NCBI GenBank assembly: GCA_046290225.1
Contig: JBKAGE010000035.1
Span: 224,001-288,000 of the forward strand
Origin: Bradymonadia bacterium
Lineage (GTDB): Bacteria; Myxococcota_A; Bradymonadia; UBA7976; UBA1532
DNA length: 64,000 bases
Direction of reading: 5' to 3'
The notes under the pieces were generated by a model that saw only the letters and a program-made list of their open reading frames with translations, made no database searches and was not told the origin of the DNA. Numbering within the stretch: the stretch's first letter is position 1; each line of letters begins with the position of its first letter. Of the stretch, positions 26,327 to 52,317 are shown in pieces. The translations under genes and the position numbers were made by a program.

Positions 26327-27313
26327 CTACAGGAACGACGCCGCCAGGGCGCTGAAGAGCTGATGATCGGCGTGGCGCCGAACGTAGTCGGGGTTGATCT
26401 GAGGCACGATCTTCTTGGTGCGCACCGAAGCATACCAGTGCACCACCCGGGTGCGCTCGGTCATGACCTCGTCGGGGGCCGGGGCTCGACCGATGACAGG
26501 CCACGAAGCCTTGGGCAGAACCGTGCGGAACCAGTGCTCCGAGATCTCCGGCCCCAGAGGGTAGAAGACCTCGGGGGGATGCACCACCATGTCAGCGCCG
26601 CTGTAGGCTTTGAGCTGCTGTTGCAGCAGGTGTGTGCCCAGGGCGAAGCGCACGGTCTGCCGGGCCTCGGGCAGATCGATCATGGCCTGCAACAGCCCGC
26701 TCACGAAGGGGTGCTCGGGGGTCGACGCCAGCACCGCGTTGTTCGCCGCCACGGGGTAGGCCTCTTCGATGCGGCGAAAGGCCCGCCAGCCCTCGGGGGC
26801 CCGACGCATGAGATCCCGCATGGTGGTCTGGGCATAGGCTCGGGCCTGCACCAGAGGGTTCTTCGAGCGCTTCACGTGCTCGGGGAACACCACCCGCTCG
26901 ACGCCGCAAAACGCTGTGGATTGACGCCGCAGAGGGGTCAGATCGGCCACGGTGATGGTGTCGGTATCGAGGTAGACCCCACCCTCGCTGTAGAGCAGCG
27001 CGGCGCGGACCATGTTGGCCCGGGCTGCAGGCTGGGTGAGCTTCTCGAAGAGTTTGACCAGGGCCGGACCGTGGGGCCCCGCGGCGCCGAGGATCGCCTC
27101 AGGATCGAGGGGCCGCAGCGTCAGCTCACCGCGCGCCTGGGCTGCGGCGAGGGTGGGCCACGCCGGCGCCGGGGTCAGATCGTCTGCGTGGTGCAAGATG
27201 ACCTCGTCGAACCCTCCGCGGCGGGCCGCGGAGATCATCGAGAGGGCGTGCACCCAGTGCAGGCCGGTGCCGAACCAGATGAAATGCGCCTTCGCAGGGA
27301 TCTCGGTGCTCAC
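26327..27313 (-). CDS. GT32-type (Och1/Sur1/A4GALT-like) DXD glycosyltransferase
   Basis: GTG at 27313 overlaps the upstream stop; IPAKAHFIWFG, ANMVRAALLYSEGGVYLDTD, NNAVLASTPEHPF, FYP. Confidence 0.85.
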   Translation of the reverse strand: MSTEIPAKAHFIWFGTGLHWVHALSMISAARRGGFDEVILHHADDLTPAPAWPTLAAAQARGELTLRPLDPEAILGAAGPHGPALVKLFEKLTQPAARANMVRAALLYSEGGVYLDTDTITVADLTPLRRQSTAFCGVERVVFPEHVKRSKNPLVQARAYAQTTMRDLMRRAPEGWRAFRRIEEAYPVAANNAVLASTPEHPFVSGLLQAMIDLPEARQTVRFALGTHLLQQQLKAYSGADMVVHPPEVFYPLGPEISEHWFRTVLPKASWPVIGRAPAPDEVMTERTRVVHWYASVRTKKIVPQINPDYVRRHADHQLFSALAASFL

Positions 27314-29754
27314 GCTGAGGTGCCCCCGCCAGACTTCAAGCGGCGATGCCGACCGATGGTGACGAAGGCCGCCGTGAGGCTGGTGGTGGTGACGTAGATC
27401 GCCGCGATGCCCACCACGGCCACCGAGCCGATGGACTGCAGACCCTCGCTGTTCACCATCAGCAAGCTGGCGAAGCCCACCGCCGTGGTGAGCGCCGCCA
27501 CCCCAGAGGCCACGCCGGTGGTGGCCAGGGCGGGCTTCACGGACCCTTCTTCTTCTTCCACGCGATAGAGCAGGTGGATGGCGGTGTCGACGCCGATGCC
27601 GAAGATGGTGGGCAACACCACGATGTTGAACAGGTTCAGGGGCACCTGCAGCCAGGCCAGGGCGCCGAGGAAGATCACGAAGCCAGTGATGAGCGGGATG
27701 TACGCCAGGGCGATGCGCCGGGGGCGACGCAGGTCGAGGGTGAGCAGCAGCAACACCACCAGGGCGGCGAGGCCCACGGCCACAGGACCTTCTTCTTTCA
27801 CCGTGGTGTACGCCGCCCCGGTGATCATCCACGGCGCCGTGGCGTAGTAGGTCTTGCCCTCGACATCGACCTCGCCGATGGCGTCCTGGATCTTGAGCAC
27901 GTGGGGCGCGTTCGACTTCGGCCCGTTGGGGTAGAGCAGCACATAGCGACCCAGGGTACCGTCGACGTCGGTGAACTTGGTCTTCACCCAGTCGGGCAGA
28001 CCGTCGACCCCGAAGCCACCCTCGGTGGGCTCGAGGTAGGGCATCAGCTTGTCGGCCTCGACTTTGTCCTCACCCTCAAGAATCCCGTATTTGCGCTTGA
28101 GCTTCTTGCGGGTCTTGTTGATGAGCCGCAGCTTCTCCTTCTGCCCCTCGGGGATGAAGGTGTAGATCGACACCACGTCGTCGAGCAGCGGCTCCGACTC
28201 GATGCGATCGGTGAACTGCGTGTGCACCGAGGCCGTGTGATCGAGGTTGTCGGTGATCACAAGGGCGGGGCTGGCGTTCCGGGTCTCGGCCTCTTTGCGG
28301 TACTTCTGCTTCAGGGCCGAGGACTTCTTCGTCGAGGGGGGCCGCATCTTGCGCATGTCGCCCTCGAACTCGATCTTCTGAATGCGGGTGGCCCCGATGG
28401 CCATGATCACCAGCAAGACGCCGATGCTCGCCTGGGACAACCGCACGCCCTTCTCTGTGGGCTGGCCGGCCTCGGCGTGATCACCGGCGCCGTCGGCCAC
28501 CACCCGGACCCCACCGATGACCGCGGCGAGGGGGGGCAGCACGAGGTACACCGCCAGCAGGCACAGGGCCACACCAGCGGCGGCGATGAAGCCGAACTGC
28601 GAGAAGCCCCGGAAGTCGAAGAACATCAGGGCCCCGAAGGTGGCCATGGTGGTCAACATGGCCGCCACCATGGGCCGCCCGAGGCCCGTGAGGGCAGAGG
28701 CCAGCGCGTCTTCGAGGTTTTTGCCTTTTCGGGCCTCTTCGTTGACCCGGCTCATGGCGTGCACCGCGAAGTCGATGCCCAGGCCCACCAGGATGGCGAA
28801 GATGAAGGCGGTGATCAGGTTGAGGTAGCCCACCGTCAGGCGGGCGAAGGCCATGGTCCAGGCGAGGCCCACCAGCAGAGGCACCACGATCAAGAAGATG
28901 GCCCGGATGCGCCGGAACGAGAACGCCAGGATCAGCGCCACGATGCCCAGGGCCACGGAGCTCGACGAGGCGAGATCTTTTCTGATCTGATCGACGGCGG
29001 CGGACAGCTGCGTGTAGTCGCCCTCGATGGTGGTCTTCAGGCCCGGGTAGGTCTTCTCGACCTCGGCGATGGCGGTGTTCACCTTCTCCATCAGCGCCCG
29101 GGTCTTCGTCTCGTCCGAAGGCTTGAAGTTGGGGTAGGCCTTCACCGAGAGCACCTGGCCATCGGGGCTCTCGAAGTACTCCCGCAGATCTTCGCCGCGG
29201 TTCTCTTTCTTGAGCTCGTCGATGTCCGGGAGAGACTCCTCTTCGTTGCGCTCGTTCTCTGCCGACGGGGGCGGCGGGGGGTCGTCTTCGTCGAGGCCCA
29301 GGCTGAGCTTCTTCTTCACCGCCTTTTTGATGGCCCCCGTCACCCCGTCGTACATCTTCTGCACGTCTTCGATGGGCAGGTAGAGCAGGGCGTTCTTCTC
29401 GAAGAAGTCCACGTCCCGGCGGTACTCCACCTCGGTGATCAGATCAGTGTGGGCCGCGAGCTTCTCCGCGAGCACCGCAGCGGCGGCGCGGTTCGTCTCC
29501 TGATTGTCGGACCCGATGAGGATCTGCAAATCAGAGGGCGTGCGGAGGATCTCCCGGGCTTTACGGGCCCGGACCACCTGGGGGGTGTCCTCGGGGAAGA
29601 GGTCTTCCATGTCCGAGCGGATCTGGATCTGCGTGCCCCACCAGCCGGCGAGGCCGGTGAAGGCGAAGAGCACCACCAGGGCCACCCACTTGTGGGCCAC
29701 GAGGCCCCGAATCACCCGCTCGATGGTGTGCTGAATCTGCTCTGTGAAGCTCAT
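27310..29754 (-). CDS. MMPL/RND-family lipid transporter
   Basis: Duplicated transmembrane clusters, GLGIDFAVH and GIGVDTAIH motifs, two large periplasmic loops. Confidence 0.92.
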   Translation of the reverse strand: MSFTEQIQHTIERVIRGLVAHKWVALVVLFAFTGLAGWWGTQIQIRSDMEDLFPEDTPQVVRARKAREILRTPSDLQILIGSDNQETNRAAAAVLAEKLAAHTDLITEVEYRRDVDFFEKNALLYLPIEDVQKMYDGVTGAIKKAVKKKLSLGLDEDDPPPPPSAENERNEEESLPDIDELKKENRGEDLREYFESPDGQVLSVKAYPNFKPSDETKTRALMEKVNTAIAEVEKTYPGLKTTIEGDYTQLSAAVDQIRKDLASSSSVALGIVALILAFSFRRIRAIFLIVVPLLVGLAWTMAFARLTVGYLNLITAFIFAILVGLGIDFAVHAMSRVNEEARKGKNLEDALASALTGLGRPMVAAMLTTMATFGALMFFDFRGFSQFGFIAAAGVALCLLAVYLVLPPLAAVIGGVRVVADGAGDHAEAGQPTEKGVRLSQASIGVLLVIMAIGATRIQKIEFEGDMRKMRPPSTKKSSALKQKYRKEAETRNASPALVITDNLDHTASVHTQFTDRIESEPLLDDVVSIYTFIPEGQKEKLRLINKTRKKLKRKYGILEGEDKVEADKLMPYLEPTEGGFGVDGLPDWVKTKFTDVDGTLGRYVLLYPNGPKSNAPHVLKIQDAIGEVDVEGKTYYATAPWMITGAAYTTVKEEGPVAVGLAALVVLLLLTLDLRRPRRIALAYIPLITGFVIFLGALAWLQVPLNLFNIVVLPTIFGIGVDTAIHLLYRVEEEEGSVKPALATTGVASGVAALTTAVGFASLLMVNSEGLQSIGSVAVVGIAAIYVTTTSLTAAFVTIGRHRRLKSGGGTSA

Positions 29755-30920
29755 GAACGGCGCTCCGCGACGAGGGTGCTGTAGAACTCGAAAAGCTCGG
29801 CGAAATGGTCGGCCATGGTGCCGATGCGCTCGGCGGCCATGGTGGCGGCTCCGGCCTTGAGGGCCACGGGATCACGATCGAGCATGCGCAGCAAGGCCTT
29901 CGCGGCCTCTCCGGCATCCCCCGTGGGGTAGACCTCGGCATGATCAGGCCCCGCGAGATCAGCAGCCCCGCCGATGTCGGGGACCACGATGGGCAGACCC
30001 GAGCACAAGGCCTCGGCCACCACCAGCCCGTAGGTCTCTGCCGCTGATCCGTGGAACATGGCGTCGGCACTCGCCAACGCCTGGGCCAGCTCGTGACGAT
30101 CTTTGGTGAAGCCCGCCACGTAGATCCCAGGGACCTTCGCGGCGAGCCTTCTGATCTGTTTACGCATGGGGCCGTCACCATAAATCACCCACCCCATGGG
30201 TCGCACCTTGCTCGCCTGCTCGAAAGCCTTGATCAAGGTGCCCAGGCGCTTCTCGGGGTGAAACCGGCTGATGGTGACGACGAGCGAGGCATCTGAAGGC
30301 ACACCACACTCGGCGAGCAATCGCGCTCTCAGCTCGGCGCTGGCGTGATCGGGAGAGAAGCGCTGCTTGTCGATGCCGAAGGGCACCGCCTGAGGCCGGT
30401 TGATGCCGAACCGCCCGAGCTTTCGGGCGAGCCAGTGACCGCTCACCACCGTGGAGTCGAAGCGCGTGCTCAACGTGCGCAGGTAGCCCCAGTACCAACC
30501 GAAGAGTCGATCGACGCGATCTGTGCCCACCCGGTTGCCGAGGAAGGTCTGTGGATACACCGCCACCGGATCCTGGTGAAAGATGAAGGTCTTCACCGCA
30601 GGGCCCTTCCACCGGGCGGCGAACCAGCCGCCGGTCCAGGGCGACGACCCCTCGACGACGTCGGGACGCTCGGCGTCGAGCACGCGATGTACGGCGCGCT
30701 CGTTCCACAACACGGTGTAGCGTGGGTCGAAGGGCATGGGTGGGCCCTTCACCCAGATCACTCTGCCGCCGTTGCGCTCTTCTTCACCGGGCTCGGTCCC
30801 TGGCGCCACCACCACGATCTCATGGCCCGCTTCGGCGCCGGCCTTGAGCTTCTGGTTGATGTAGGTCTTCACCCCGCCGCCTTCGTCGGCGTAGAACTCG
30901 GCGACGTCTACGATCTTCAC
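29751..30920 (-). CDS. GT4-family glycosyltransferase
   Basis: GGVKTY, RFHPEK, GDGP, ETYGLVVAEALCSGLP. Confidence 0.9.
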   Translation of the reverse strand: MKIVDVAEFYADEGGGVKTYINQKLKAGAEAGHEIVVVAPGTEPGEEERNGGRVIWVKGPPMPFDPRYTVLWNERAVHRVLDAERPDVVEGSSPWTGGWFAARWKGPAVKTFIFHQDPVAVYPQTFLGNRVGTDRVDRLFGWYWGYLRTLSTRFDSTVVSGHWLARKLGRFGINRPQAVPFGIDKQRFSPDHASAELRARLLAECGVPSDASLVVTISRFHPEKRLGTLIKAFEQASKVRPMGWVIYGDGPMRKQIRRLAAKVPGIYVAGFTKDRHELAQALASADAMFHGSAAETYGLVVAEALCSGLPIVVPDIGGAADLAGPDHAEVYPTGDAGEAAKALLRMLDRDPVALKAGAATMAAERIGTMADHFAELFEFYSTLVAERRS

Positions 30921-32693: not shown

Positions 32694-34100
32694 ATGCGCG
32701 TCGGCATCATGACTGAGTATCCTTCCGTTGCCGTGCAGTCCGGGCCTGCCCTGCACACTCGCTTCTTGTACGAGCAGATGAAGGGTCGGGGGCACAGCGT
32801 GGTGCTCATGGGGCCGGACACCGGCAGTGAAGATCCTATCGACGCTTCCGAGGTTCAGCTTTACAAAGGCCGCCCCTACCCCACGCACCCGAAGGTGAAG
32901 ATCCCCATGCCGGCCAGCTTCGGCCACATGTGGAACGCCCCCGACGTGGACGTCATCCACTCCCAGACCAACACCCACATGGTGCATTACGCGGTCTGGA
33001 TGCGGCGCATGAACCGGGTGCCGGTGCTCAACACTCACACGGTGCACCTGCCCACCCACTCGCACTTCGTCATCTCGGACAAGATGTGGCAGAAGCCCGC
33101 GGTGCGGCGGTTCCTGATGAACAGCGCCTCGAAGCTCGAGCGCAACTTCGCCAAGCTCTACAACCAGGGCGACTACCTGATCGTGCAGAGCAAGCACTTC
33201 GTGCAGTACTGGAAGGACCGCGGCGTCACCATCCCCATCGAGGTGGTGGGCCGCCCCATCGACCCGGCGAAGTTCTCCAAGACCCCGGGCCGTGATCCGT
33301 TCCCCAAGGGCTTCACCAAGGGCAAGCGACTGCTGGTGGTCTGCCGCCACGACCGGGAGAAGAGCCTCGATCACCTGATCAAGATCTTCGCCGAGCATCT
33401 GGCGCCTTCTGATCCCGACATCACCCTCACCCTCGTCGGTGACGGCCACGATCACGTGAACCTCGTGAACCTCGCTTCACGGACGGGCTACGCCAACCGG
33501 ATTCACTTCCCCGGGGAGATGAAGCACGGCGAGCTCGTCGACTGGTACGCCCACAGCGACGTCTTCACCTACACCTCGATCTCCGAGACCTTCGGCAACG
33601 TGGTGAACGAGGCTCTGTGGTGCCGCCAGCCCGTGGTGGCCCTCAACGACAACATGGGCGTGGCCCATCAGGTCGAGGACGGCGTGAACGGGTTCCTCGT
33701 CGAGCCCAAGCAGGCCGACACCGACGTGCTCTTCGCGAAGCGCGTGATGCAGCTCGTCAACGACGACGCGCTCCGGGCCAGGATGGCGGAGACCGCCGCC
33801 GAGATGAGCCGGGCCCGCAGCCACCCCGACGTGGTGGTGAGCCGCTTCGAGAAGATCTACGGCGAGGCCAAGCGCCACTGCGACGCCACCATCACCCGGC
33901 CCCTGAGCGAGGCCAGCACCTTCCGCCAGAAGGCGGCCCTGGCCAACCACCTGCAGAAGTGGCGCTGGTACAACGGCTGGCTGCTCACCATCGCCAAGGT
34001 GGCCACGGGCCTCGGCGCCGGCCGCAAGGTGCCCACCCAGGCCCTGCCGGCCCCCACTGTGCACCAGACCGGCGAAGCCCGCCGGATCACCATCAGCTGA
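32694..34100 (+). CDS. GT4-family glycosyltransferase (glycolipid synthase-like)
   Basis: AAGGAGG RBS; DVIHSQT, RHDREK, VGDG, SETFGNVVNEAL. Confidence 0.88.
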   Translation: MRVGIMTEYPSVAVQSGPALHTRFLYEQMKGRGHSVVLMGPDTGSEDPIDASEVQLYKGRPYPTHPKVKIPMPASFGHMWNAPDVDVIHSQTNTHMVHYAVWMRRMNRVPVLNTHTVHLPTHSHFVISDKMWQKPAVRRFLMNSASKLERNFAKLYNQGDYLIVQSKHFVQYWKDRGVTIPIEVVGRPIDPAKFSKTPGRDPFPKGFTKGKRLLVVCRHDREKSLDHLIKIFAEHLAPSDPDITLTLVGDGHDHVNLVNLASRTGYANRIHFPGEMKHGELVDWYAHSDVFTYTSISETFGNVVNEALWCRQPVVALNDNMGVAHQVEDGVNGFLVEPKQADTDVLFAKRVMQLVNDDALRARMAETAAEMSRARSHPDVVVSRFEKIYGEAKRHCDATITRPLSEASTFRQKAALANHLQKWRWYNGWLLTIAKVATGLGAGRKVPTQALPAPTVHQTGEARRITIS

Positions 34101-34109: not shown

Positions 34110-35141
34110 ATGTCTGATCGCGGCCTCATCTTCGTCACCGGTGGCAACGGGTTCATCGGCAGCCGTGTCGTGCGCTTGCTCGTGGAGCAGGGCTACCGGG
34201 TGCGCTGCCTGTTGCGCCAGACCAGCAACACCGATCGCATCGATGATCTCGAGTTCGAGCGCTTCATCGGCGACGTGCGAGATCAAGCGTCCCTCACCGA
34301 GGGCATGCAGGGCGCTCAGGGGTGCATCCACCTCGCCTCGATCAGCGCCTGGGAGAAGATGGAGTCGGACGAGCTGGAAGACACGGTGATCTCCGGCACT
34401 GAATACGTGATGGAGGCCGCCCTCGCCGCGGGCAAGATCCGCACAGTCTTCGTCTCGTCGATCCTCGGCATCAACGGCACCACCGAGCCCCGGGAGATGA
34501 CCGAAGACGAGGTCTTCGGCCTCGAAGGCACCCCGCTGCGGTACGCCATCGCCAAGCACAAGGCCGAGGAGCGGGTCCGCCGCTACGTTGCGGAGCAGGG
34601 CCTGCCGGCGATCATCGTGAACCCCTGCGAGGTGTACGGCCCGGAAGACACCGGCCTGATCACCGCCTGCAACCTCATCGACTTCATCAATGGCTGGCCT
34701 GCCCTCACCCTGAAGGGGGGCACCGCCATCGTGCACGTGGACGACGTGGCTCAGGCCATGGTGGCCGCCCTCGAGAAGGGCGAGCCCGGCGAGCGCTACA
34801 TCCTCGGGGGGGACAACCTCACCCTCGACGCCCTCGCCCGCCTGACCCTCGACATCGCCGGCAAGCCCAACAAGACCGTGCTCCGCCTGCCGGTGGGGCC
34901 CGTCCGGGCTGTGGTCCGGGCCATGGCAGCCATCAAGCTGCCCACGCCCGTCGTGCCCCAGGTCCTCGATTACGCTCGTTATTACTACTTCGTCGATCAC
35001 ACCAAGGCCCGCGAGACGCTGGGGTTCGACCCCCGGCCCGCACGGGCGGTTCTGGAACCCACCATCGCCTGGCTCGCCGAGGCAGGGCACATCAAAGCCC
35101 TGCCCCAGAAGGCAGACGACTCCACCGCCCAGCGCGTGTGA
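34110..35141 (+). CDS. NAD-dependent epimerase/reductase (extended SDR, HpnA/DFR-like)
   Basis: VTGGNGFIG, YAIAK catalytic motif, VHVDDVA, GERYILGG. Confidence 0.9.
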   Translation: MSDRGLIFVTGGNGFIGSRVVRLLVEQGYRVRCLLRQTSNTDRIDDLEFERFIGDVRDQASLTEGMQGAQGCIHLASISAWEKMESDELEDTVISGTEYVMEAALAAGKIRTVFVSSILGINGTTEPREMTEDEVFGLEGTPLRYAIAKHKAEERVRRYVAEQGLPAIIVNPCEVYGPEDTGLITACNLIDFINGWPALTLKGGTAIVHVDDVAQAMVAALEKGEPGERYILGGDNLTLDALARLTLDIAGKPNKTVLRLPVGPVRAVVRAMAAIKLPTPVVPQVLDYARYYYFVDHTKARETLGFDPRPARAVLEPTIAWLAEAGHIKALPQKADDSTAQRV

Positions 35142-35152
35142 AGGAGACCGAG

Positions 35153-36985
35153 ATGAACGCACCCAACATCCAGTCCCCGCAGCCCCTCGTCGCTCCGACC
35201 CTCACCGAGGCCCTCGACCGGCTCCCGAGCATGCGCCCCAACGGCGGCTACACCTTCATCGACATGAAGGGCGAGCAGCGTCTCGTGACCTATGCCGAGA
35301 TGAACACCCGCACCCGCAGCTTCGCCGGGCACCTGTACGATCAAGGCCTGCAGGTGGGCGATCGGGTGGGCCTCATCGTCATCGAGCCCGAAGACTTCGT
35401 GGTGGCCTTCTTGGGGACGATCCGCGCCGGCATGGTGCCGGTGCCCCTCTACCCCCCCATGGCCCTCGGCGAGCTCGACGCCTACCTCGGCCGCCTCGGC
35501 CGCATCTTGACCAAGGGTGAGGTGAAGGCCCTGGTGGCCTCGAAGGCCCTAGACAAGATCGTGTGGGGTGTCATGGGCAAGGTGCCCTGCCTCAAGGGCG
35601 TGCTCACCGTGGAGAAGCTCGTGGCCCCCCGCGAGCCCGTGGCTGATCTGCCGGTGCCCAAGGCCGATGATCTGTGCTTCTTGCAGTACACCTCGGGGTC
35701 GACCTCTGATCCCAAGGGTGTGGTGGTTCAGCACCAGCACTTGGCGGCGAACAGCCAGGCCATCGTGGATCACCTCGAGATCGACCGGCACACCGACAAG
35801 GCCTTCGCCTGGCTGCCGCTGTACCACGACATGGGCCTCATCGGCTTCGTGATCACCGGCACCCTGCACGGCTTCGACATCGTGCTCATGCCCACTCTGC
35901 GGTTCCTCAAGCGCCCCAACGCGTGGCTGCAGGGCATCCACGACACCCGGAGCACCATCACCTTCTGCCCGCCCTTCGCCCTGAGCCTCGCCGCTCGTCG
36001 GGCCAAGGAGGCTCAGCTCTCGAAGTGGGACTTGTCCTGCCTGCGGCTGGTGGGTGTGGGCGCCGAGCCGATCCAGCCCGAGGGGGCGCGGCAGTTCACC
36101 GAGCTGTTCAACGATCGCTGCGGCATGCCCACCACGGTGGTGACCCCGGCCTACGGCATGGCCGAGGCCACCCTGGCCATGTCGATGAAGCTGCCCGATC
36201 GTGAGTTCTCCACCCGCGTGGTCGACGCCGCCACCTTCGAGGCCACAGGCTGCGCGGTGACCGCCGAGGCCGGCGCCGCGGTGCTTGAGCACGTCTCCTG
36301 CGGCCGCCCGCTGCGCCGCCACCAGGTCCGGGCCATCAGCGCCGAGGGCAAGTGGCTGCCCGAGGGCGTGCAGGGCGAGCTGTGCTTCCGGGGGCCCTCG
36401 GTCACCGCGGGTTACTTGAACCAGCCCGAGGCCACCTCGGCGGCCTTCAAGAACGGCTGGCTGCACACCGGTGATCTGGGCTACGTGCTCGACGGCGAGA
36501 TCTTCGTCACGGGGCGACTGAAGGATCTGATCATCCTCAACGGCCGCAACCTGCACCCCCAGTCCCTGGAGTGGACGGTGGGCACCATCGACGGTGTGCG
36601 CAAAGGCAACGTGGTCTGCTTCTCGGTGCCCGGTGACGGCACCGAGGCCCTGGTGGTGGCCCTCGAGGCCCAGATCGACGCCCCTGAGGATCTCGCCGAG
36701 ACCGTGCGGGATCGCCTGCGCAAGGCCGAGGGCGTGCCGGTGGATCACGTGGTGATTTTGCAGAAGGGCCAGCTGCCCAAGACGTCTTCGGGTAAACTGC
36801 AGCGCCGCAAGGCCCGCCAGCTGTTCATCGAGGGCACCCTCGAGGCTCAGGGCTCTCGTGCTCAGGGCCAGGGCCCGAGCAACATCGCCGGCAAGGCCAC
36901 CCTTGCCCGCCACGTGGCCCGGAGCACCTGGGCCCGCATGAAGCACCAGGCCCGTGGGGCCCTGGGCCGGGGAGCGTTCTCTTGA
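35153..36985 (+). CDS. Fatty acyl-AMP ligase (FAAL)
   Basis: LQYTSGSTSDPKGV, WLPLYHDMGLIG, YGMAEATL plus FAAL-type insertion, TGDLG, LPKTSSGK. Confidence 0.92.
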   Translation: MNAPNIQSPQPLVAPTLTEALDRLPSMRPNGGYTFIDMKGEQRLVTYAEMNTRTRSFAGHLYDQGLQVGDRVGLIVIEPEDFVVAFLGTIRAGMVPVPLYPPMALGELDAYLGRLGRILTKGEVKALVASKALDKIVWGVMGKVPCLKGVLTVEKLVAPREPVADLPVPKADDLCFLQYTSGSTSDPKGVVVQHQHLAANSQAIVDHLEIDRHTDKAFAWLPLYHDMGLIGFVITGTLHGFDIVLMPTLRFLKRPNAWLQGIHDTRSTITFCPPFALSLAARRAKEAQLSKWDLSCLRLVGVGAEPIQPEGARQFTELFNDRCGMPTTVVTPAYGMAEATLAMSMKLPDREFSTRVVDAATFEATGCAVTAEAGAAVLEHVSCGRPLRRHQVRAISAEGKWLPEGVQGELCFRGPSVTAGYLNQPEATSAAFKNGWLHTGDLGYVLDGEIFVTGRLKDLIILNGRNLHPQSLEWTVGTIDGVRKGNVVCFSVPGDGTEALVVALEAQIDAPEDLAETVRDRLRKAEGVPVDHVVILQKGQLPKTSSGKLQRRKARQLFIEGTLEAQGSRAQGQGPSNIAGKATLARHVARSTWARMKHQARGALGRGAFS

Positions 36986-37311: not shown

Positions 37312-40300
37312 ATGCACACGACCACCCCCATCGCCATCGTCGGCATTGGCTGCCGCTTTGCGGGCGCTCAAGATCTGCACGCCTACGCTGATCAGATGCT
37401 CGCCGGCGTCGACGGCTTTGGTCCGATCCCCGCGGATCGCTGGACCCACGACGGCTTCTTCGATCGCAACCCCCGCAAGGCCGACAAGGCCTACACCACA
37501 CGGGGCGGGTTCATCGACGACATCAAGAGCTTCCCCGCGGTGGCGCTGCAGATCCCGCCGCGGCGCCTCGAAGTGATGGATCCACAGCAACGCTTGATCT
37601 TGGAGGTGAGCCTTCAAGCGGTGGCGGACGCTGGGATGCACACCTCGGCCTTGCCAAAGCGTACTGGGGTGTACGTGGGGGTGACGGCGGTGGAGTTCCG
37701 CACGCTCATGGCCTCACGGATTCTGGCCCAGATGATGGCTCAGGGTGATCTCGGCGACGGCATGGTGGACCCCTCGGCCCTGGCGGCGGCCATCGATCGC
37801 GTGATCCCGCCCCGGCCCTTCACGGCACCAGGCGTGCTCTCGAACATGATCGCCGCCACGGTGGCTCAGGAGCTGGGTCTGAAGGGCCCGGCCTTCACCA
37901 TGGACGCGGCGTGCGCCTCGTCTCTGCTGGCGGTGGCCCAGGCGGTGACGGGTCTTCGGGCGGGGCTCACCGACGTGGCCCTGGCAGGCGGGGTGTACCT
38001 CTGCCTGACCCCGGAGCATCACGTGGCGTTCTCCCGCATCGGGGCCATCAGCCCCTCGGGGCGCTGCCTGCCCTTCGACGCCCGGGCCGACGGCTTCGTG
38101 CAGGGTGACGGCGCTGGCATGGTGATGCTCAAGCGCCTCGATGACGCCGAGGCCGCCGGGGATCGCATCTACGGCATCATCGAAGGCATCGCCGTGAACA
38201 ACGACGGTGGCGGCGAGGGCCCCATGGCCCCGGTGCAGTCCGGCCAGATGGACGTGATCGAGATGGCCTGGGCCGACGCGGGGCTGAGCGCTTCGAATCT
38301 GGGCTACGTGGAGACCCACGGCACCGGCACCGCGGTGGGCGACAAGACCGAGTTCGCCGCCCTGATGCAGACCCTCGGCGGTGATGTTCAGCAGGCGGCC
38401 TTGGGCTCGGCAAAGGCCAATGTGGGCCACACGATGTCCGCCGCTGGAGTGGCGGGCCTGATCCGGGCCACGCTGGCGCTCTCTCGCGAGGTGGTGCCCC
38501 CCATGGCCCACTTCGAAGGGGCCAAGGCCGAGCTGGGCCTCGACGACTCGCCTTTCTTCGTACCCACAGCCCAGCAGGCGTGGTCTGGTGCCGATCGCCT
38601 CGCGGCGGTGAGCAGCTTCGGCTTCGGCGGTACCAACGTGCATGCCGTCGTCCGCTCAGCCAATGGCGGCTCGATGGCTGCGCATGGCGCGCCCGCGCCC
38701 ACACCCCAGCTCGAGCTGGTGTGCATCTCGGCCCCTGACGAGGTCAGCCTGCAGACCCTCGCCGGCCGCACCGCCGACGCTCTTGAGGCCGATCCGAGCC
38801 TCACCGTGGCTGGAGTGGCCCGAGCATGGCAGGTCCGCCGAGCCCAGCCCGCTCGCCTGGCCCTCGTGGCCGACAACCGGGAAACCCTCGTAGCCCAGCT
38901 GCGGGCGGCCCAGGCCGGCGAGCACGCAGACGGCACCACGGCAGCCCTCGCACCGGAGACGCCCCCAAAGATCGCAGGGCTCTACCCTGGCCAGGGCGCC
39001 CAGCAGATCGGCATGTTGCGGGCCCTCAAAGATCGCTTTCCGATCATCGCCGACGCCCTCGCCGAGGCCGACTCTGTGGCCAGCGAGGTGTGCACGCGCC
39101 CGATCTCGGAGCTGCTCTACCCCGAGCTCCGCGCCGAGACCATCGACGATGAAGCCGCTCAGGCCGAGCTGACCAACACCCGCAACGCTCAGCCTGCTCT
39201 CATCGCCGTGGGCCACGCCCTCACCGCTTTGTTGGATCAGGTGGGTGTGCAGCTCGACGTTGTGGCTGGTCACTCCGTCGGTGAGTTCACCGCCGCGGTC
39301 ACCGCCGAGGTCCTGCCCTTCGAATCAGGCCTGCGCTGGGTGGCGGCTCGGGGCGCCGCCATGGCCGATCACGAGGGTGATCCTGGGGCTATGGTGGCCC
39401 TGCACGTGCCCGCAGAGCGGGCCGAGGCCCTCCTCGTCGAAGTTCTGCCTGTGGGGCACGACCACCACGGTGAAGCCATCGTGGCCAACCACAACCACCC
39501 CCGACAGGTGGTGGTCTCCGGCACGACGCCTGCGGTGGCCGTCATCACCGAGGCCGCCAAAGCTGCGGGCATGCGGGCCACGCCGCTCCAGGTCTCTCAC
39601 GGATTCCACTCCCCAGTCTTCGCCGATCTTGATCTGAGCGCTGTCGTCGATGGTCTCCCCCTCGCTGATCCGCAGATCCCCCTGGCGTCGTGTATCCAGG
39701 ATCATCCCTACGCCGACGCCGACGAAGCCCGCGCGGTCTTCAAAGCCCACGCCACCTCGCCGGTGCGCTTCGTGGATACGCTGAAGCAGTGCCAGCAGGC
39801 CGGCGCCGAGTTGTTCCTGCAGGTGGGTGTCGGCGGCCCGCTGGCCTCGTTCACCCGAGGCACCCTCGAGGCGGGCAGCCACAAGGGCGTGCTCACCCTG
39901 AGCAGCCACAAAGAGCACCTCTCGGTGGGCGCCCTGCTGCTCACCTTGGGCAAGCTCTGGGTGGCGGGCGTGCCCGTGAACACGGCGCCCATCACCGGCT
40001 CGGCCCCCGTGGCCAGTGTGCCCCCGGAGGTGCTCCCCCGCACATGGCACTGGGGCGTGAAGCGCGAGGGCAATGGCCGCACCACCCTCGTGGGTCTGCA
40101 GAGTGAGGCTAAAGCCCAAACCACAGCTCAACCCAAGACGACGACCAGCAGCCTCGCCGCTGAGAAGCCAGCGGCGAGCCCGGCCACCGCGCCCGCACCG
40201 CAGGTCGACGTGCCCGCTGAGTCGTCTGCTCAGGCCGCCTCTGCCGAGTCCGTCATTCTTTCCACTGTGGCTCAGGTGAGCGCCTACCCGCTCGCCGCCC

Positions 40301-43300
40301 TCAAGGTGGAGATGCGGCTCATGGAGGATCTGGGCTTCGACTCGCTCATGCTCGTCGATCTCGGGGAGCAGCTGGTCAAGGCGATCGACGGCCTCGACGG
40401 GCTGCCTCAGGAGCTCTTCGTCAACCAGCCCAGGATCCAGGATCTCATTGATTACGTGACCGCTCAGGGCGACAGCAACGCCGAGGCGAACACCTCGACA
40501 GCAGACGAGGCGCCAGCGCACATCGATGATCACGATCCGCTGTCGCGGTTCCGACCCCACTGGGTCGAGGCGCCGCTCCCCACGTCGACCACCCCGTGGC
40601 CCGAAGGGCTGAAGGTGGCCATCGCCGGGCCCGGCGTCAGCGCCGCGGGGGTGCGGAGCGCTCTGCAGCAACGCGGCAACGCGCTGGTGAGCCCCTCCGA
40701 ATGCGATGTGCTCGTCTGGTGCGCAGACGGTGTCGATCAGCCGCACCTGGCCCTCGTCGTCGATGGTGACGATCCGGCCCCTGATCCTGCCGCAGCGCTG
40801 CTGTCGACCCTCAAGACCCTCGACAGCAACAGCCACCGACCCGACGTGATGGTCCTCCGCGACGCCGAGGACTTCTGGGCCGAGGGCCTCACCGGGGTGA
40901 TCCGCGCCCTGGCGCGAGAGTGGCCCGAGAGCCGCTGCCAGAGCCTGCGCTTCGACGCAGGCCTCAGCGCCGAAGCCCGCGTGGAGATCTTCACCCAGGC
41001 TGCAGTGAGCGCCGACGCCACCGTCGACGCCCTGTTCACGCCCACAGGGCGCTTCATCGCCGATCTGGCCCCAGCGCCGGAGACCGCAGAGCCGTTTGCA
41101 CCCACCAAATGGGGCTGGACGGTGATCACCGGGGGCATGCGGAGCGTGGGCCTCGCCATTGCCCAGCGGCTGCTCGATGCCGGCGGCATGGTGGCCCTCG
41201 TGGGCCGCAAGGGCCCCTCCAGCGAGGCAGAAGATCTGTGGCACACCCACGGCGAGCGGGTGGCCTTCGTCAAAGCCGACGTGCTCGACAAAAAAGGCAT
41301 CGCGCTGGCGCTGGAGAGGTGGCATGGCCGAGTGCACACCATGGTGCACTGTGCTGGTGTCCTCGCCGACGGCGCAGTAGGTCAGGTGAGCCTTGAGGCG
41401 GGTCGCAGTGTACGCGCGGTCAAGACTCAGGGCTGGCTCAACAGCCTCGCCGCCTGTGGCCGGGGGCTCAAGCGCACTGTGGCCATCGGCTCGTGGGCAG
41501 GTCGTTTCGGCAACCGGCACCAGTTGCACTACGCTGCAGCCAACGCCCAGATGGCCGCCATCGCCGAGCATCTGCCGATCCCTGCAGTGGTCTCCGAGTT
41601 CGGCCCCTGGACCGACAGCACCATGGGGCAGACCCTCTCTGAGGGGGTCAAGGCCACCATGCGAGCCAGCGGCGTCGACTTCGTGGGCACCGAGGCGGGC
41701 GTGAACGCCGTGCTCGCCGATCTCGCCGATCCCATCGGGGTGAGCCTGAGGGCCCGCCGCGTACCTCAGCGCGATCGCCGCGTGCAGCAACGCGTGCCGT
41801 TGTCGGTGGCCGCGCACCCGTACCTGCACGATCACGCCATCGGCGGTGTGCCGGTGCTGCCCATGGCCTCAGTGGTCGATCTCATCGCGTGGTCCAGCGC
41901 CGTGCAGGGGCCCTTCGAGGTCAGCAACGTGCGCTTGTTCCGAGGGGTGACGGTCACCGAAGACACCCACCTCACGGTGCAGGTCAACGGCGACGCCGCT
42001 CGAGTGACTGGTCCTGAAGACACCCTGCACTACACCGCCACGGTGCGGCCTGTGCTCGACCTGCCCACCTGGGCCGCCGTCGACGCCACTGGCCCCGTGG
42101 GGGTCGATCTCGACACCTTCTACCGCGACGTCACGTTCCACGGCCCCATGCTGCGCGGCCTCGTCGCTGCCGAAGGCGCTGGGCCCGACGTGATCCGTGG
42201 TCGAGTGAAGACCGGCCGCCCCAGCGACTGGATGCCCGACACCGCGCGAGATCGCTGGTCTGTCGATCCGCTGGCCCTCGACTCGGCCTTCCAGCTCGCA
42301 GCCGTGGCCGCCTGGGTGCAGTTCCAGCGTGGGGGCACCCCCATCGCTCTGGAGCGTCTGGTCCAGATCGCGCCGCTGCCCGCAGGTGAGATCTGGGCCG
42401 AGGTGCGGCTGAAGAGCCACACCGGCGACCAGTTCACTGCCGATGTGGCCCTGCTCGACGCCAGCGGCGCGCTGTTGCTGCTCGCCGAGGGCCTCAAAGC
42501 AGAGCTGCGGGCCATCGAGGCCCCTGATCAGGGCCACGATCCAGCGCCCCAGGCACCTGAGACCCCTGCAACTGAAGCCCCTGCCGCCGAGGCGATGGAG
42601 CTGAAGCCCGAGTGGACCGACTTCGCCGAGGCCCCAGAGTACAAAGACCTGCGCATGCGCCTCGATATGGTGGGCGCGCTGGGCTTGAAGAACCCCTACT
42701 TCGACGTGCACCAGGGCACCGCCCGCAGCCACAGCCTCATCGACGGCCGCGACTGCCTGAACTACAGCAGCTACAACTACCTCGGTTACTCTGGTGATCC
42801 CCGAGTGCTCGACGCCGTCGAGGCCGCCATGCGCACGTACGGCACCTCGGTGAGCGCCAGCCGGGTGGCCAGTGGGGAGCGGCCGTTCCACGGTGAGCTC
42901 GAGCGGGGCCTCGCCGCCGCTCAGAACGCCGACGCTGCCGTGGTCATGGGCTCGGGTCACGCCACCAACGTCACCACCATCGGTCACCTGTTCGGCTCGA
43001 AGGATCTCATCCTGCACGACGAGCTGATCCACGACTCGTGTCTGCAGGGCATCAAGCTCTCCGGAGCTGCCCGCCGGAGCTATCGTCACGAGGATCCTGA
43101 GCACCTCGAGTCTCAGCTCAAGATGCTGCGCCCGCACTACGAGCGCGTGCTCATCTTGACCGAGGGCGTGTACTCGATGGACGGCGACATCTCGAACACA
43201 CCGGCCTTTGTGGCGCTCAAGCGCAAATACGGCTGCTTGCTGATGGTCGACGAGGCCCACTCCTTCGGCACCGTAGGGGCCACGGGCCGGGGCGTCGGCG

Positions 43301-43824
43301 AGCATTGGGGCCTCGAGCGCGGTGATGTCGACATCTGGATGGGCACTCTGAGCAAGAGTCTGAGCGCCATGGGCGGCTGGATCGCCGGCAGCAACGCCCT
43401 GGTAGAGTACCTGCGTTACACCACCCCGGGCTTCGTCTTCGCCGCTGGCCTGCCCCCGACGCTGGGCGTGGCGGCGCTCACCTCGCTGCAGCTCATGGCC
43501 CAGGAGCCCGAGCGCGTGCAGCAGCTGCAGCGCAATGGCAAAACCTTCGTTCAGGCCCTCACCGAGCGGGGCATCGACGTGGGCCCCGCCCGAGGCGAGT
43601 CACCGGTGGTGCCGGTCATCACTGGCAACTCGCTGCATGCGATGCACCTCGCCGCCCGTCTGCTCGAAGACGGCATCAACGCCCGGCCCATCGTGTACCC
43701 CGCCGTGGCGGACGACGCAGCCCGGCTGCGGTTCTTCCTGTGCAACCTGCACACGCCCGAAGAGCTGGTCCACACCGCAGAGCGCGTAGCCCATCACCTG
43801 CAGCAAATCCGCAGCGAGATCTGA
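37312..43824 (+). CDS. Type I PKS (KS-AT-ACP-KR-DH) fused to a PLP-dependent alpha-oxoamine synthase
   Basis: KS: DAACASSL, HGTGT, NVGH; AT: GHSVG, HGFHS; ACP: GFDSL; KR: ITGG, YAAAN; DH: HPYLHDHAIGGVPVLP; oxoamine synthase: SYNYLG, SMDGD, DEAHS, GTLSKS. Confidence 0.93.
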   Translation: MHTTTPIAIVGIGCRFAGAQDLHAYADQMLAGVDGFGPIPADRWTHDGFFDRNPRKADKAYTTRGGFIDDIKSFPAVALQIPPRRLEVMDPQQRLILEVSLQAVADAGMHTSALPKRTGVYVGVTAVEFRTLMASRILAQMMAQGDLGDGMVDPSALAAAIDRVIPPRPFTAPGVLSNMIAATVAQELGLKGPAFTMDAACASSLLAVAQAVTGLRAGLTDVALAGGVYLCLTPEHHVAFSRIGAISPSGRCLPFDARADGFVQGDGAGMVMLKRLDDAEAAGDRIYGIIEGIAVNNDGGGEGPMAPVQSGQMDVIEMAWADAGLSASNLGYVETHGTGTAVGDKTEFAALMQTLGGDVQQAALGSAKANVGHTMSAAGVAGLIRATLALSREVVPPMAHFEGAKAELGLDDSPFFVPTAQQAWSGADRLAAVSSFGFGGTNVHAVVRSANGGSMAAHGAPAPTPQLELVCISAPDEVSLQTLAGRTADALEADPSLTVAGVARAWQVRRAQPARLALVADNRETLVAQLRAAQAGEHADGTTAALAPETPPKIAGLYPGQGAQQIGMLRALKDRFPIIADALAEADSVASEVCTRPISELLYPELRAETIDDEAAQAELTNTRNAQPALIAVGHALTALLDQVGVQLDVVAGHSVGEFTAAVTAEVLPFESGLRWVAARGAAMADHEGDPGAMVALHVPAERAEALLVEVLPVGHDHHGEAIVANHNHPRQVVVSGTTPAVAVITEAAKAAGMRATPLQVSHGFHSPVFADLDLSAVVDGLPLADPQIPLASCIQDHPYADADEARAVFKAHATSPVRFVDTLKQCQQAGAELFLQVGVGGPLASFTRGTLEAGSHKGVLTLSSHKEHLSVGALLLTLGKLWVAGVPVNTAPITGSAPVASVPPEVLPRTWHWGVKREGNGRTTLVGLQSEAKAQTTAQPKTTTSSLAAEKPAASPATAPAPQVDVPAESSAQAASAESVILSTVAQVSAYPLAALKVEMRLMEDLGFDSLMLVDLGEQLVKAIDGLDGLPQELFVNQPRIQDLIDYVTAQGDSNAEANTSTADEAPAHIDDHDPLSRFRPHWVEAPLPTSTTPWPEGLKVAIAGPGVSAAGVRSALQQRGNALVSPSECDVLVWCADGVDQPHLALVVDGDDPAPDPAAALLSTLKTLDSNSHRPDVMVLRDAEDFWAEGLTGVIRALAREWPESRCQSLRFDAGLSAEARVEIFTQAAVSADATVDALFTPTGRFIADLAPAPETAEPFAPTKWGWTVITGGMRSVGLAIAQRLLDAGGMVALVGRKGPSSEAEDLWHTHGERVAFVKADVLDKKGIALALERWHGRVHTMVHCAGVLADGAVGQVSLEAGRSVRAVKTQGWLNSLAACGRGLKRTVAIGSWAGRFGNRHQLHYAAANAQMAAIAEHLPIPAVVSEFGPWTDSTMGQTLSEGVKATMRASGVDFVGTEAGVNAVLADLADPIGVSLRARRVPQRDRRVQQRVPLSVAAHPYLHDHAIGGVPVLPMASVVDLIAWSSAVQGPFEVSNVRLFRGVTVTEDTHLTVQVNGDAARVTGPEDTLHYTATVRPVLDLPTWAAVDATGPVGVDLDTFYRDVTFHGPMLRGLVAAEGAGPDVIRGRVKTGRPSDWMPDTARDRWSVDPLALDSAFQLAAVAAWVQFQRGGTPIALERLVQIAPLPAGEIWAEVRLKSHTGDQFTADVALLDASGALLLLAEGLKAELRAIEAPDQGHDPAPQAPETPATEAPAAEAMELKPEWTDFAEAPEYKDLRMRLDMVGALGLKNPYFDVHQGTARSHSLIDGRDCLNYSSYNYLGYSGDPRVLDAVEAAMRTYGTSVSASRVASGERPFHGELERGLAAAQNADAAVVMGSGHATNVTTIGHLFGSKDLILHDELIHDSCLQGIKLSGAARRSYRHEDPEHLESQLKMLRPHYERVLILTEGVYSMDGDISNTPAFVALKRKYGCLLMVDEAHSFGTVGATGRGVGEHWGLERGDVDIWMGTLSKSLSAMGGWIAGSNALVEYLRYTTPGFVFAAGLPPTLGVAALTSLQLMAQEPERVQQLQRNGKTFVQALTERGIDVGPARGESPVVPVITGNSLHAMHLAARLLEDGINARPIVYPAVADDAARLRFFLCNLHTPEELVHTAERVAHHLQQIRSEI

Positions 43825-43828: not shown

Positions 43829-45121
43829 TCAGCGCGCCGTCAAACCTTCGAGGGTTCGGGCCAGGAGCCCGGCGGTGTGGGGCGCGGAGAACTGATCCAC
43901 GGCGTCCCCCTTAGGGGTCACCGCCGGCCTGCCCTCCACAGCAGCAGCGAGCACCTTCCGCAGCGCGTCGCACACCGCGGCCACGTCATCAGGGGCTGCC
44001 ACAAACCCCGTGCCTGTATCTTCCACCATGCCCCGCAGCTCGGAGCTGCCGGAGAGACACAGGATCGGCGCTCCAGACAAGAAGTAGTCGAAGGTCTTCG
44101 CCGGCACGTACAAGGTCTCGCCACCATAGGCCAGCAGCAGCTGAAGCGGAGCCTTCGCCAGGCGGGTGATGCCCTCGGCATAAGGCACGTACGGCTCCCA
44201 GTGCAGCATGGACTGCAGACCCAGATCAGCGAGCAGGTCCAAGTCGGTCTGCGCCGGACGCCCCAGGTTCACCAGCCGCAAGCGCTCCGCGCCTGGGCAC
44301 TGCTCATCTCGGAGACGGGCGACGGCTCGAATGACCGTCGCCAGCTTCCGGGGCCCATAACAATTGCCGAAGTGGATCAGATCGATGGGCCCGTCAGGGT
44401 CGATGTGCACCCCTCGCGGCGGCGCCAGCGCCGGATCGAAGCTGTTGTAGATGGTGCGGATGTGGCCCTCGGGCAAGCCTGGGTACAGCTGGCGGTAAGC
44501 CTCAGCGGCGTGCTCACACGTGAGCAGCACCTGATCAGCTGCGGCGAAGTAGCGTGACTCGAGGCGCGCCTCCACCGCCCGCGTCCAGTTGGGTTTACGC
44601 AGTTGGTTGAAGTTGAGCGACCACGGATCGCGCAGGTCGAGGCACACCGGCAGGCCGGTCATCTTCTTGGCGGCGATGCCCAGCCGCAGCATGTAGTAGG
44701 GGCTCGACGTAGAGAAGATGACCTCGGGCTGCCAGCGATCCACCGCCTCGCGGATCTGGCGCAACATCCAGCGCTGAATCCAGGCCTGAGAGTTCAGCGG
44801 CAGCTGAAACTGCCCCGTCACGGTCTTCACCAGTGACTTCTTCTGCTCCGGGCGATCGGTGGTGGGCTGAGCGGTCGTGCCATCGCTGGGCCGGCCCTTG
44901 GGCTCAGGCCACCACCCAGGCAGCAGGTTGCGCTGGAGCACCACCGAGTCGGGCAAGGGATGGGGCGTAGAGTCCGCCCGCTCCGGAGAGGGCTCCGGGC
45001 CGGTGATCACCACGGGGCGCCACCCATGCTCGGGCAGATACCGGGCAAACCGATAAGGCCGCTTCCCGCCCACCGCGAAGGAGGGGGGAAAGTGCTCTGC
45101 CAGCATCAATACGGTCCTCAT
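43829..45121 (-). CDS. GT-B (GT4-like) glycosyltransferase
   Basis: HFPP..GGKR, STSSPY, DLRDPW, PAKTFDY. Confidence 0.82.
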   Translation of the reverse strand: MRTVLMLAEHFPPSFAVGGKRPYRFARYLPEHGWRPVVITGPEPSPERADSTPHPLPDSVVLQRNLLPGWWPEPKGRPSDGTTAQPTTDRPEQKKSLVKTVTGQFQLPLNSQAWIQRWMLRQIREAVDRWQPEVIFSTSSPYYMLRLGIAAKKMTGLPVCLDLRDPWSLNFNQLRKPNWTRAVEARLESRYFAAADQVLLTCEHAAEAYRQLYPGLPEGHIRTIYNSFDPALAPPRGVHIDPDGPIDLIHFGNCYGPRKLATVIRAVARLRDEQCPGAERLRLVNLGRPAQTDLDLLADLGLQSMLHWEPYVPYAEGITRLAKAPLQLLLAYGGETLYVPAKTFDYFLSGAPILCLSGSSELRGMVEDTGTGFVAAPDDVAAVCDALRKVLAAAVEGRPAVTPKGDAVDQFSAPHTAGLLARTLEGLTAR

Positions 45122-45294
45122 GCGTATGCCTCTGCGCGCCTCTGTGATGTCGTCCGGCGCAGCTTGACGACTTTGAAGATTACGTACAACACGCTTGTCG
45201 ATCTCCCAGACCGCGCGGGCGGTTGCTCACACCAGACACGGTGCTTAGAGTGCCTCTCAACGCCAGCCCGCGCTCAAAGCTCCGAGGTCGTCCA

Positions 45295-46047
45295 GTGCCG
45301 CTCCCGCTCATCTCCGCCATCATCCCCATCCGCAACCGCAGCAGCGATCGACTGGAGAACTGCCTGAGGGCGCTCCGATGGCAGGATCTGCCAGACGATC
45401 AATACGAAGTGATATTGAGTGATTTTGGCTCCAGCCCCGAGGAGGCCCGCCTGCTCCTCGAGATGGCCGAGCGCCACGGCGCCAGAGTGGTGCGCACCGA
45501 CACCGACGAGGTCTGGAACCGCTCCCGGGCCCTGAACTACGGCATCCGCGCCGCCCGGGGCGACTTCGTGTTCTGCACGGACGCCGACATGATCTTCGCG
45601 CCGAACTTCCTGAGCACGCTCCTGAGCACGCAACAGGCGAACGCGGATCAGGCCTTCGTGGTGTGCCGCTGCCGGGATCTCCCCGAGTCAGTGCCGGAGC
45701 AGCCCTGGCGGTTCGAGGATTTTCCGGATCTGCTGAGCAAGGCGGACTTCAGAGAGAAGCTGGGCACTGGGGCCTGCCAGATGGCAAAACGCAGCTTCTT
45801 CAACGACATCCGCGGTTACGACGAAGGCTTCAAGTTCTGGGGCATGGAAGACAACGACATGAAGTTCCGCGCCACCCGCTCGGGGCTCTCACTGATCTGG
45901 GTGCACGAGCAGACGTCAATGCTGCACCAGTGGCACCCCTCGGATCGCGGCAAGCGCCCGTTCCGGAAGTTCCTCAACGACGTACGGTTCCACGTGAGCA
46001 AATACCGCCGTCGCAAGAACCTGGTGCGCTGGGGCGGCCAGCCATAG
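45295..46047 (+). CDS. GT2-family glycosyltransferase
   Basis: ISAIIPIRN, DFGS, SRALNYG, DADM (DXD), GYDEGF..WGMEDND, HQWH; GTG start at 45295 inferred from a GAGG RBS. Confidence 0.88.
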   Translation: MPLPLISAIIPIRNRSSDRLENCLRALRWQDLPDDQYEVILSDFGSSPEEARLLLEMAERHGARVVRTDTDEVWNRSRALNYGIRAARGDFVFCTDADMIFAPNFLSTLLSTQQANADQAFVVCRCRDLPESVPEQPWRFEDFPDLLSKADFREKLGTGACQMAKRSFFNDIRGYDEGFKFWGMEDNDMKFRATRSGLSLIWVHEQTSMLHQWHPSDRGKRPFRKFLNDVRFHVSKYRRRKNLVRWGGQP

Positions 46048-46065
46048 AGGCCCAGCCATTCCCCT

Positions 46066-47706: not shown

Positions 47707-47803
47707 TGGCCCGAGTCGACCGCGGCGTCAAGGGGGCCAACCCGGGGCAATCGCCCTTTGATGGCTGTGATATGGTGAGTCTTCACCTTAATTTCAGAGC
47801 GCC

Positions 47804-48967: not shown

Positions 48968-49058
48968 TCTTCGCCACGTGACAGCGATTGATTGAGCCTC
49001 AAGAAGTTCGGCGCGCCACCCGATGGCAAAGCATTGCCCCGCCGGATAACGAAGGCAG

Positions 49059-52238: not shown

Positions 52239-52317
52239 GAGGGTGCTCGAAGATGGCCTGTTCAGGGGGGCATTCTCTCACACCACGCGTGTGCAGGCAC
52301 TTCGAGATATGGCTTGG

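Follow-up and report, generated by a model that had tools for sequence, protein, structure and literature searches.

What does a polyketide synthase (PKS) make when its last domain is a pyridoxal phosphate (PLP)-dependent alpha-oxoamine synthase (AOS)? The question is raised by a gene of a Bradymonadia bacterium (GenBank assembly GCA_046290225.1), which we analyzed within a 64,000-nucleotide stretch of contig JBKAGE010000035.1 (positions 224,001 to 288,000; hereafter, the window, whose own numbering is used below). A single open reading frame on the forward strand (37312–43824) encodes a 2170-aa protein in which a ketosynthase (KS), an acyltransferase (AT), an acyl carrier protein (ACP), a ketoreductase (KR), a dehydratase (DH), and an AOS follow one another. 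We consider it somewhat probable (roughly 55%) that the operon ending with this gene makes an unsaturated membrane-lipid base of the sphingosine type through one extension of a fatty acid and coupling to serine. Of the parts of this proposal, release of the chain by condensation with an amino acid is very probable, and a serine-derived base is the probable product. Judged by its sequence, the protein is a real, conserved, and apparently uncharacterised variant of polyketide-based sphingoid synthesis.

The domain order had been proposed in an earlier note on this DNA, and Pfam returned the same one: KS at residues 5–402, AT at 557–852, ACP at 981–1049, KR at 1268–1434, DH at 1490–1730, and Aminotran_1_2 at 1814–2158. 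The internal ACP match is weak within the full protein (E = 2.7e-4, above cut-off) and reaches E = 3.6e-6 on the excised segment. None of the 13 Pfam matches to the protein belongs to an enoylreductase (ER) or thioesterase family, in agreement with the lack of an ER noted before. The earlier note had made its reading depend on KR and DH being detectable by profile search; Pfam found both, and structure modeling agreed. The AlphaFold model of residues 1054–1760 (28 sequences; pLDDT 91, pTM 0.88) resembles PKS KR didomains, with E = 8e-22 for the best of them, and one PKS DH at rank 50 (TM 0.73 by target).

In an alignment of 109 full-length proteins (the listed homologs of 1950–2400 aa, window protein included), catalytic residues of the KS, AT, ACP, KR, DH, and AOS are invariant throughout. 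The KS Cys-His-His triad (C201/H336/H373) and the AT serine (S655) are in place, as previously read, and so are HGFH in the AT, which we take to be a malonyl-type motif, and DEAHS (at 43249) and TLSK (which includes K2015) in the PLP domain. Exactly one internal-ACP motif is present in 108 of the 109 proteins. D1353 is presumably a B-type KR signature; a B-type KR aspartate combined with a DH His/Asp dyad produces a double bond in the trans configuration. When the PLP part was searched against proteins of 1193–3798 aa only, 119 homologs were listed at 61–71% identity. KR and aminotransferase families are present in every one of them, and those named come mostly from metagenome-assembled genomes of Myxococcota or Deltaproteobacteria. 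A look-up of sequence clusters for a cultured carrier gave metagenome-assembled genomes or no name at all.

The PKS gene is the last of a tight run on the forward strand, preceded by genes for a GT4 glycosyltransferase, an extended short-chain reductase (SDR), a fatty acyl-AMP ligase (FAAL), and a free-standing ACP (Table 1). Starter supply had been left out of the earlier note; by family and linkage, the FAAL likely loads a starter fatty acid onto the free-standing ACP, and the two most likely provide the PKS with its fatty-acyl starter. The best model of the FAAL, PRK09192, exceeds its cut-off in controls from Caulobacter and E. coli and falls short of it here.

The following route can be proposed. 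The FAAL would adenylate a long-chain fatty acid and load it onto the free-standing ACP; the KS, with its residues intact, would accept the acyl chain and condense this chain with the malonyl unit carried by the internal ACP. In what we assume to be one cycle, the B-type KR and the DH would produce a trans-2-enoyl chain, and the double bond would stay because there is no ER. The fused AOS would then join the 2E-enoyl chain to L-serine with loss of CO2 and release a 3-keto-4E-sphingenine-type product, serine being suggested by the likeness of the AOS to the enzyme PfSgaB described below. The SDR might reduce the 3-ketone, and an unlinked acyltransferase and the GT4 enzymes might N-acylate and glycosylate the base.

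A first question is whether the module works once or repeatedly. The earlier note had proposed an iterative or single-round reductive elongase with amino-acid release; reductive elongation without an ER and PLP-dependent release stand, while iteration does not follow from the domain order alone. The order is indeed enediyne-like: in SgcE of C-1027, KR (1203–1382) precedes DH (1462–1726) with near-equal spacing, and SgcE/PfaA-type iterative PKSs share with the window protein both this order and the lack of an ER. If the module did cycle several times, serine would be joined to a fatty-acyl-primed conjugated polyene, giving a pigment-like amino-lipid. The window KR, which scores 70 bits against SgcE and 46 against a WcbR-type PKS, is in line with this, as is the description of PfSgaA as iterative (PMC12134224).

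The KS, however, lies outside the SgcE and PfaA-like branches, and also outside those of WcbR/RkpA and RedL, in two trees (here as throughout, quick SH-aLRT trees; sampling is thin, SgcE and PfaA-like KSs being one row each, and SgcE is long-branched). It forms a clade with Streptomyces KS-(AT)-ACP-AOS proteins (support 95–96), is only 33% identical to the SgcE KS, and the PfaA model TIGR02813 gives 509 bits against a cut-off of 1010. Since the KS does not group with either, domain order alone does not show iteration. Moreover, the window PKS is most likely FAAL-primed and ends in an AOS, a place presumably taken in SgcE by a PPTase. Some related loci recruit separate desaturases, and no thioesterase was seen among the scanned neighbours. 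We regard the polyene as unlikely: a single round agrees somewhat better with a FAAL-loaded starter, only one ACP inside the protein, and desaturases encoded separately. Elsewhere, the same genome encodes a PfaA-like synthase of 3856 aa in which two stretches are of the KS type (L023:6823-18390, G000:C70). The Streptomyces KSs mentioned above are the nearest outgroup to the window KS.

The second question is which amino acid is used. The fold-type I PLP hallmarks of an alpha-oxoamine synthase (H1907, D1980, H1983, K2015) are invariant in all 109 proteins, and the best PDB match of the domain is SPT 3a2b (E = 1e-66). In two trees the AOS belongs to a clade (SH-aLRT 100) of WcbT/RkpG-type AOSs, which adjoin WcbR/RkpA PKSs, Planctomycete FAAL-ACP-AOS fusions, and Streptomyces KS-(AT)-ACP-AOS proteins, joined by RedL in the second tree; BioF, Kbl, and Bacteroidetes-type SPT-like proteins are excluded in both. 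Identities follow suit: 51% to a Pseudomonas WcbT-type AOS, 46% to the RedL oxoamine synthase (OAS), 40% to an SPT-like protein, and 33% to the BioF and Kbl of the same genome. The domain is no canonical SPT by the NCBIfam models either, scoring 283, 260, and, for NF047603, 207 bits against cut-offs of 640, 500, and 670.

The earlier note had compared the protein with RedL. On sequence, the closest characterised PLP enzyme is instead PfSgaB, to which the window AOS is identical at 70 of 102 core positions (by eye, from the sequence printed in Fig. S6 of PMC12134224) and which condenses acyl-CoAs with a near-exclusive preference for L-serine (PMC12134224). S1850 aligns with V79 of ThAOS, a position described as determining selectivity: SPT and AONS have Ser there, ALAS has Thr, and Kbl has Val (PMC11906848). 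Ser occupies this position in all 109 proteins, in PfSgaB, and in BioF; three RedL sequences carry Thr, and the genome's own Kbl carries Val. The site reads Ser-Arg in the window protein and all 109, and Thr-Pro in the three aligned RedL rows (identified by context and by a RedH neighbour above cut-off). Ser at 1850 argues against glycine and would not separate serine from alanine; together with the likeness to SgaB, it is consistent with L-serine-specific condensation.

The same chain chemistry with glycine or alanine would lead to a 1-deoxy-sphingoid base or to a pyrrole or pyrrolidine alkaloid of the RedL/RedK kind. The RedL OAS sits in the same clade, the order FAAL-ACP-KS-AT-ACP-AOS followed by an extended SDR mirrors redL-redK, and BioF carries the same serine. 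Against this stand the Thr-Pro of RedL where the window protein and PfSgaB have Ser-Arg, the different clade of the RedL KS, and the missing redH-type ligase gene among the scanned window genes. The KR and DH would also remove the beta-ketone that RedL cyclisation presumably needs (pathway in PMC11188435). We consider such a product rather unlikely.

A further alternative concerns the KR and DH. Were the DH inactive in the productive cycle, or the KR in the case of this genome, a 5-hydroxy or 3,5-diketo base would result, or the gene would be an impaired copy. The KR cofactor loop GGMRSVG (at 41131), in which one Gly had been reported as replaced, indeed has Ser for G1278 in the window protein alone, 105 of the 109 proteins having Gly; and the DH is less similar to its homologs (mean identity 43%) than are the KS (61%) and AOS (66%). 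With KR and DH catalytic residues invariant, an intact reading frame, and a confident structure model, this seems improbable. That the PLP domain is a BioF making 8-amino-7-oxononanoate, or a Kbl, was rejected: although the bioF model TIGR00858 is its top-scoring NCBIfam PLP family, it reaches 320 bits against a cut-off of 426, the trees place the domain apart as the earlier note had required, and the genome has its own bioF (421 bits) near bioD and its own kbl beside tdh.

Distribution across the phylum (inferred to be Myxococcota because its closest relatives are so named) bears on the sphingoid proposal. Members of the AOS clade (match at E = 7e-114 or better; next-best 1e-98) occur in 67 of 401 genomes, one copy each; the frame is at least 2000 aa long in 52 of them. 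Among the 15 in shorter frames, one is cut by a contig end (G032) and one is a stand-alone AOS (G230). We then took 40 loci from the 66 other clade-bearing genomes, picked for contig context, and counted genes by hand from tblastn, some queries originating from the counted loci themselves. All 40 have the order KS-AT-ACP-KR-DH-AOS, so the architecture, called unusual in the earlier note, is a widespread conserved family and not a rarity. A FAAL lies upstream in 38 and a free-standing ACP in 32; an adjacent reductase (extended or classical type), a CMAS methyltransferase, and a membrane desaturase were counted in 10, 9, and 6 loci, respectively. The conserved core is therefore FAAL, ACP, and PKS-AOS, with lipid tailoring optional. 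None of 24 family relatives examined has a clade AOS, a pattern suggestive of acquisition by transfer or of scattered loss. FAAL and PKS have a GC content of 68–69%, against 64% genome-wide; from this and the absence of the cluster from the 24 relatives, its acquisition by transfer is possible.

A Bacteroidetes-type SPT, reported for Myxococcus, Stigmatella, and Sorangium (PMC9386255), was found in 94 of the 401 genomes (E = 1e-110 or better; none above the curated cut-off). Only G230, with its stand-alone clade member, has both enzymes, against 15.7 genomes expected, and none of the 52 genomes with a long-frame fusion has the SPT. In a hand count over 70 families, the fused type occurs in 15, the SPT in 21, and both in 2, against about 4.5 expected. 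Mutual exclusion of fusion and SPT is suggestive only; if real, the fusion would stand in for ordinary SPT where lineages have none. More tentatively, and at less than even odds, we suggest that one polypeptide makes 3-ketosphingosine directly, its 4E bond arising by PKS dehydration before serine coupling, independently of O2 and of a desaturase, and that it replaces SPT as a housekeeping pathway in about one-sixth of Myxococcota genomes.

Several observations weigh against a one-round, serine-using sphingoid pathway. The layout equals that of iterative SgcE, which leaves room for more than one cycle. The AOS clade includes the RedL OAS, an enzyme that uses glycine, and the sister group of the window domain varies, being WcbT at support 86 in one tree and open in the other. 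Ser at 1850 also occurs in BioF, which uses alanine, and specificity is not fixed by first-shell residues alone (PMC13692747). The window KR, with its unique non-consensus loop, may be impaired. A reductase is adjacent in only the 10 loci counted above, and orthologs of the first GT4 gene are limited to 10 of 65 clade-bearing genomes. SPT exclusivity is weakened because related genomes are not independent, and 241 of the 401 genomes carry neither enzyme.

The tailoring candidates are likewise mixed. A candidate N-acyltransferase of the 2-oxoacid_dh family adjoins the PKS in some loci and SPT in two (L155 and L164). Counted at a threshold of E = 1e-50, after nine weaker matches had been dropped, it occurs in 50 of 66 clade genomes and 60 of 94 SPT genomes, but also in 63 of the 241 with neither enzyme, and at 1e-30 in 9 of 17 family relatives without the PKS; it is enriched, not diagnostic. 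The genome studied here encodes a stand-alone member (L175:8162-9043, G000:C77), 3 kb from an MMPL gene, in which the position we take to be the usual catalytic His reads Glu. Two further ideas found no support. That the neighbouring CMAS methyltransferases are close to fungal sphingolipid C9-methyltransferases was considered, but no such name occurred among 120 listed of 157 longer homologs in a weak search; their PDB matches are cyclopropane and mycolic synthases. The neighbouring desaturase, considered as a possible sphingolipid delta-4 desaturase, matched nothing but generic FA_desaturase clusters.

How does the system compare with known ones? In the SgaA/SgaB/SgaC system of Pseudomonas fluorescens MYb115 (PMC12134224), and in the WcbR/WcbT and RkpA/RkpG loci, a type I PKS chain is likewise released by a PLP-dependent AOS of the same clade, with a reductase nearby; the clade was represented in our trees by WcbT/RkpG stand-ins. 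SgaA and SgaB are separate genes producing saturated C24–C28 sphinganines (PMC12134224), whereas the window AOS is fused. The WcbR-type PKS, our stand-in for SgaA, is a separate, fully reducing KS-AT-DH-ER-KR-ACP protein, whereas the window PKS has no ER, has its ACP before KR-DH, and belongs to another KS clade; its FAAL and ACP would also supply the starter, unlike in SgaAB/WcbR/RkpA-type loci. RedL and RedK of Streptomyces (undecylprodigiosin) share the FAAL-ACP-KS-AT-ACP-AOS logic, a terminal fused AOS, and an adjacent extended SDR. RedL, however, has all these domains in one chain in the red cluster, lacks KR and DH, as the earlier note had said and a RedL-type protein confirmed, and uses glycine; in the window, the FAAL and first ACP are separate proteins. 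By sequence, then, the window system would resemble SgaAB in how the chain is released, and RedL in how the starter is loaded and the AOS is fused. It departs from each in defining features: from SgaAB by the lack of an ER and by its KS, from RedL by KR-DH and by Ser-Arg at the specificity site.

The rhodobacterial AasR-AcpR-SPT-epimerase module also unites an acyl-ACP synthetase, an ACP, an AOS, and an epimerase-family reductase in one locus (PMC9386255), but has no PKS extension and an SPT of another family (NF047603). The window FAAL, though under its family cut-off, has as its best model the one that matches in Caulobacter.

Fused PKS-AOS proteins as such are already known, namely RedL and an ER-containing Planktothrix fusion. 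Full-text searches limited to open-licence PMC and bioRxiv (subscription papers excluded) listed no paper whose title or abstract describes a KS-AT-ACP-KR-DH-AOS fusion; the homolog table of PMC12134224 could list fused forms. Spt-like proteins have been reported in many phyla, some matches lying inside longer proteins (PMC11334938).

Some related AOS proteins deserve mention. The Planktothrix protein, encoded on a plasmid, is a fully reducing KS-AT-DH-ER-KR-ACP-AOS fusion with FAAL and GT39 genes nearby (L107:5605-13203). In the AOS clade of the window protein, FAAL-ACP-AOS fusions of about 1150 aa occur across Planctomycetes (loci L029-L103, e.g., L041:7772-11239), likely a one-gene route to 3-ketosphinganine-type bases, and cyanobacteria have a FAAL with a separate AOS. 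In Streptomyces (among L066, L075, L101, L105, and L227-L230), KS-AT-ACP-AOS proteins of about 1600 aa lie beside MMPL genes, and shorter KS-ACP-AOS proteins of about 1130 aa follow an epimerase-type SDR. The Bradymonadia genome itself has a second amino-lipid-type pair (L020:4897-10499, G000:C78): an 848-aa AOS-GNAT acetyltransferase fusion (best model PRK07505), followed by a 1020-aa FAAL-ACP protein.

In sphingosine, the 4E double bond normally arises at a late stage, through an O2-dependent desaturase. If the proposed route is right, a PKS installs it before the backbone exists, and many mostly uncultured bacteria join the sphingolipid producers overlooked by SPT-based surveys. Together with its relatives in the AOS clade, the protein belongs to a series that runs from FAAL-ACP-AOS with no extension (Planctomycetes) through the beta-keto RedL type and the predicted enoyl KR-DH type to saturated products of ER-containing types. 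With three or four genes, the relation between domain content and the backbone of the lipid can thus be put to a direct test.

Table 1. Genes and domains of the PKS-AOS locus, in window coordinates
Feature	Position	Strand	Evidence and remarks
MMPL/HpnN-like RND transporter, divergent; candidate lipid exporter	27310..29754	-	Pfam/NCBIfam; membership uncertain
Second GT4, divergent	29751..30920	-	Pfam; membership in the operon system probable
GT4 glycosyltransferase, first operon gene; candidate headgroup transferase	32694..34100	+	Pfam
Extended short-chain reductase, epimerase family; candidate 3-keto reductase	34110..35141	+	28% identical to RedK
Fatty acyl-AMP ligase (FAAL)	35138..36985	+	Best NCBIfam model PRK09192, 471 bits (cut-off 600)
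Free-standing ACP, 81 aa	36982..37227	+	Pfam PP-binding, E = 1.3e-9; TTG start overlaps FAAL stop
PKS-oxoamine synthase fusion, KS-AT-ACP-KR-DH-AOS	37312..43824	+	Pfam, model, catalytic residues invariant in 109/109
KS domain; C201, H336, H373	37324..38661	+	Pfam; separate clade in KS trees
AT domain; S655, HGFH at 39598	38968..39870	+	Pfam, motif
Internal ACP; S1011	40252..40458	+	Pfam
KR, structural and catalytic subdomains; K1371, S1394, Y1407, N1411, D1353	40468..41751	+	Alignment, structure model
DH domain; H1508, P1517, D1657, Q1661	41779..42501	+	Pfam, alignment, structure match
PLP-dependent alpha-oxoamine synthase, WcbT/RkpG/SgaB/RedL clade; S1850, H1907, D1980, H1983, K2015, R2138	42592..43821	+	Trees, alignment

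A sigma-70 promoter scan returned no sites. Orthologs of the first GT4 were found in none of 15 family relatives without the clade and, in the loci seen, lie distant from the PKS. The first and second GT4 genes are paired in 3 of 10 ortholog loci, and in 2 of 10 the first GT4 accompanies the same desaturase family. An MMPL-type match was found in only 2 of the 40 related loci. Between the two GT4 genes (31166-32347) lies a gene whose 393-aa product apparently carries a signal peptide and matches no Pfam or NCBIfam family. Farther away, at 16803-21682, Pfam identifies a TROVE (Ro60-like) gene and a DUF4132 gene. Directly after the PKS gene (43829-55109), Pfam matches mark a surface-polysaccharide block comprising GT4, GT2, a Wzx-like flippase, a glycosyltransferase, rmlB, rmlA, rmlC, and rmlD.

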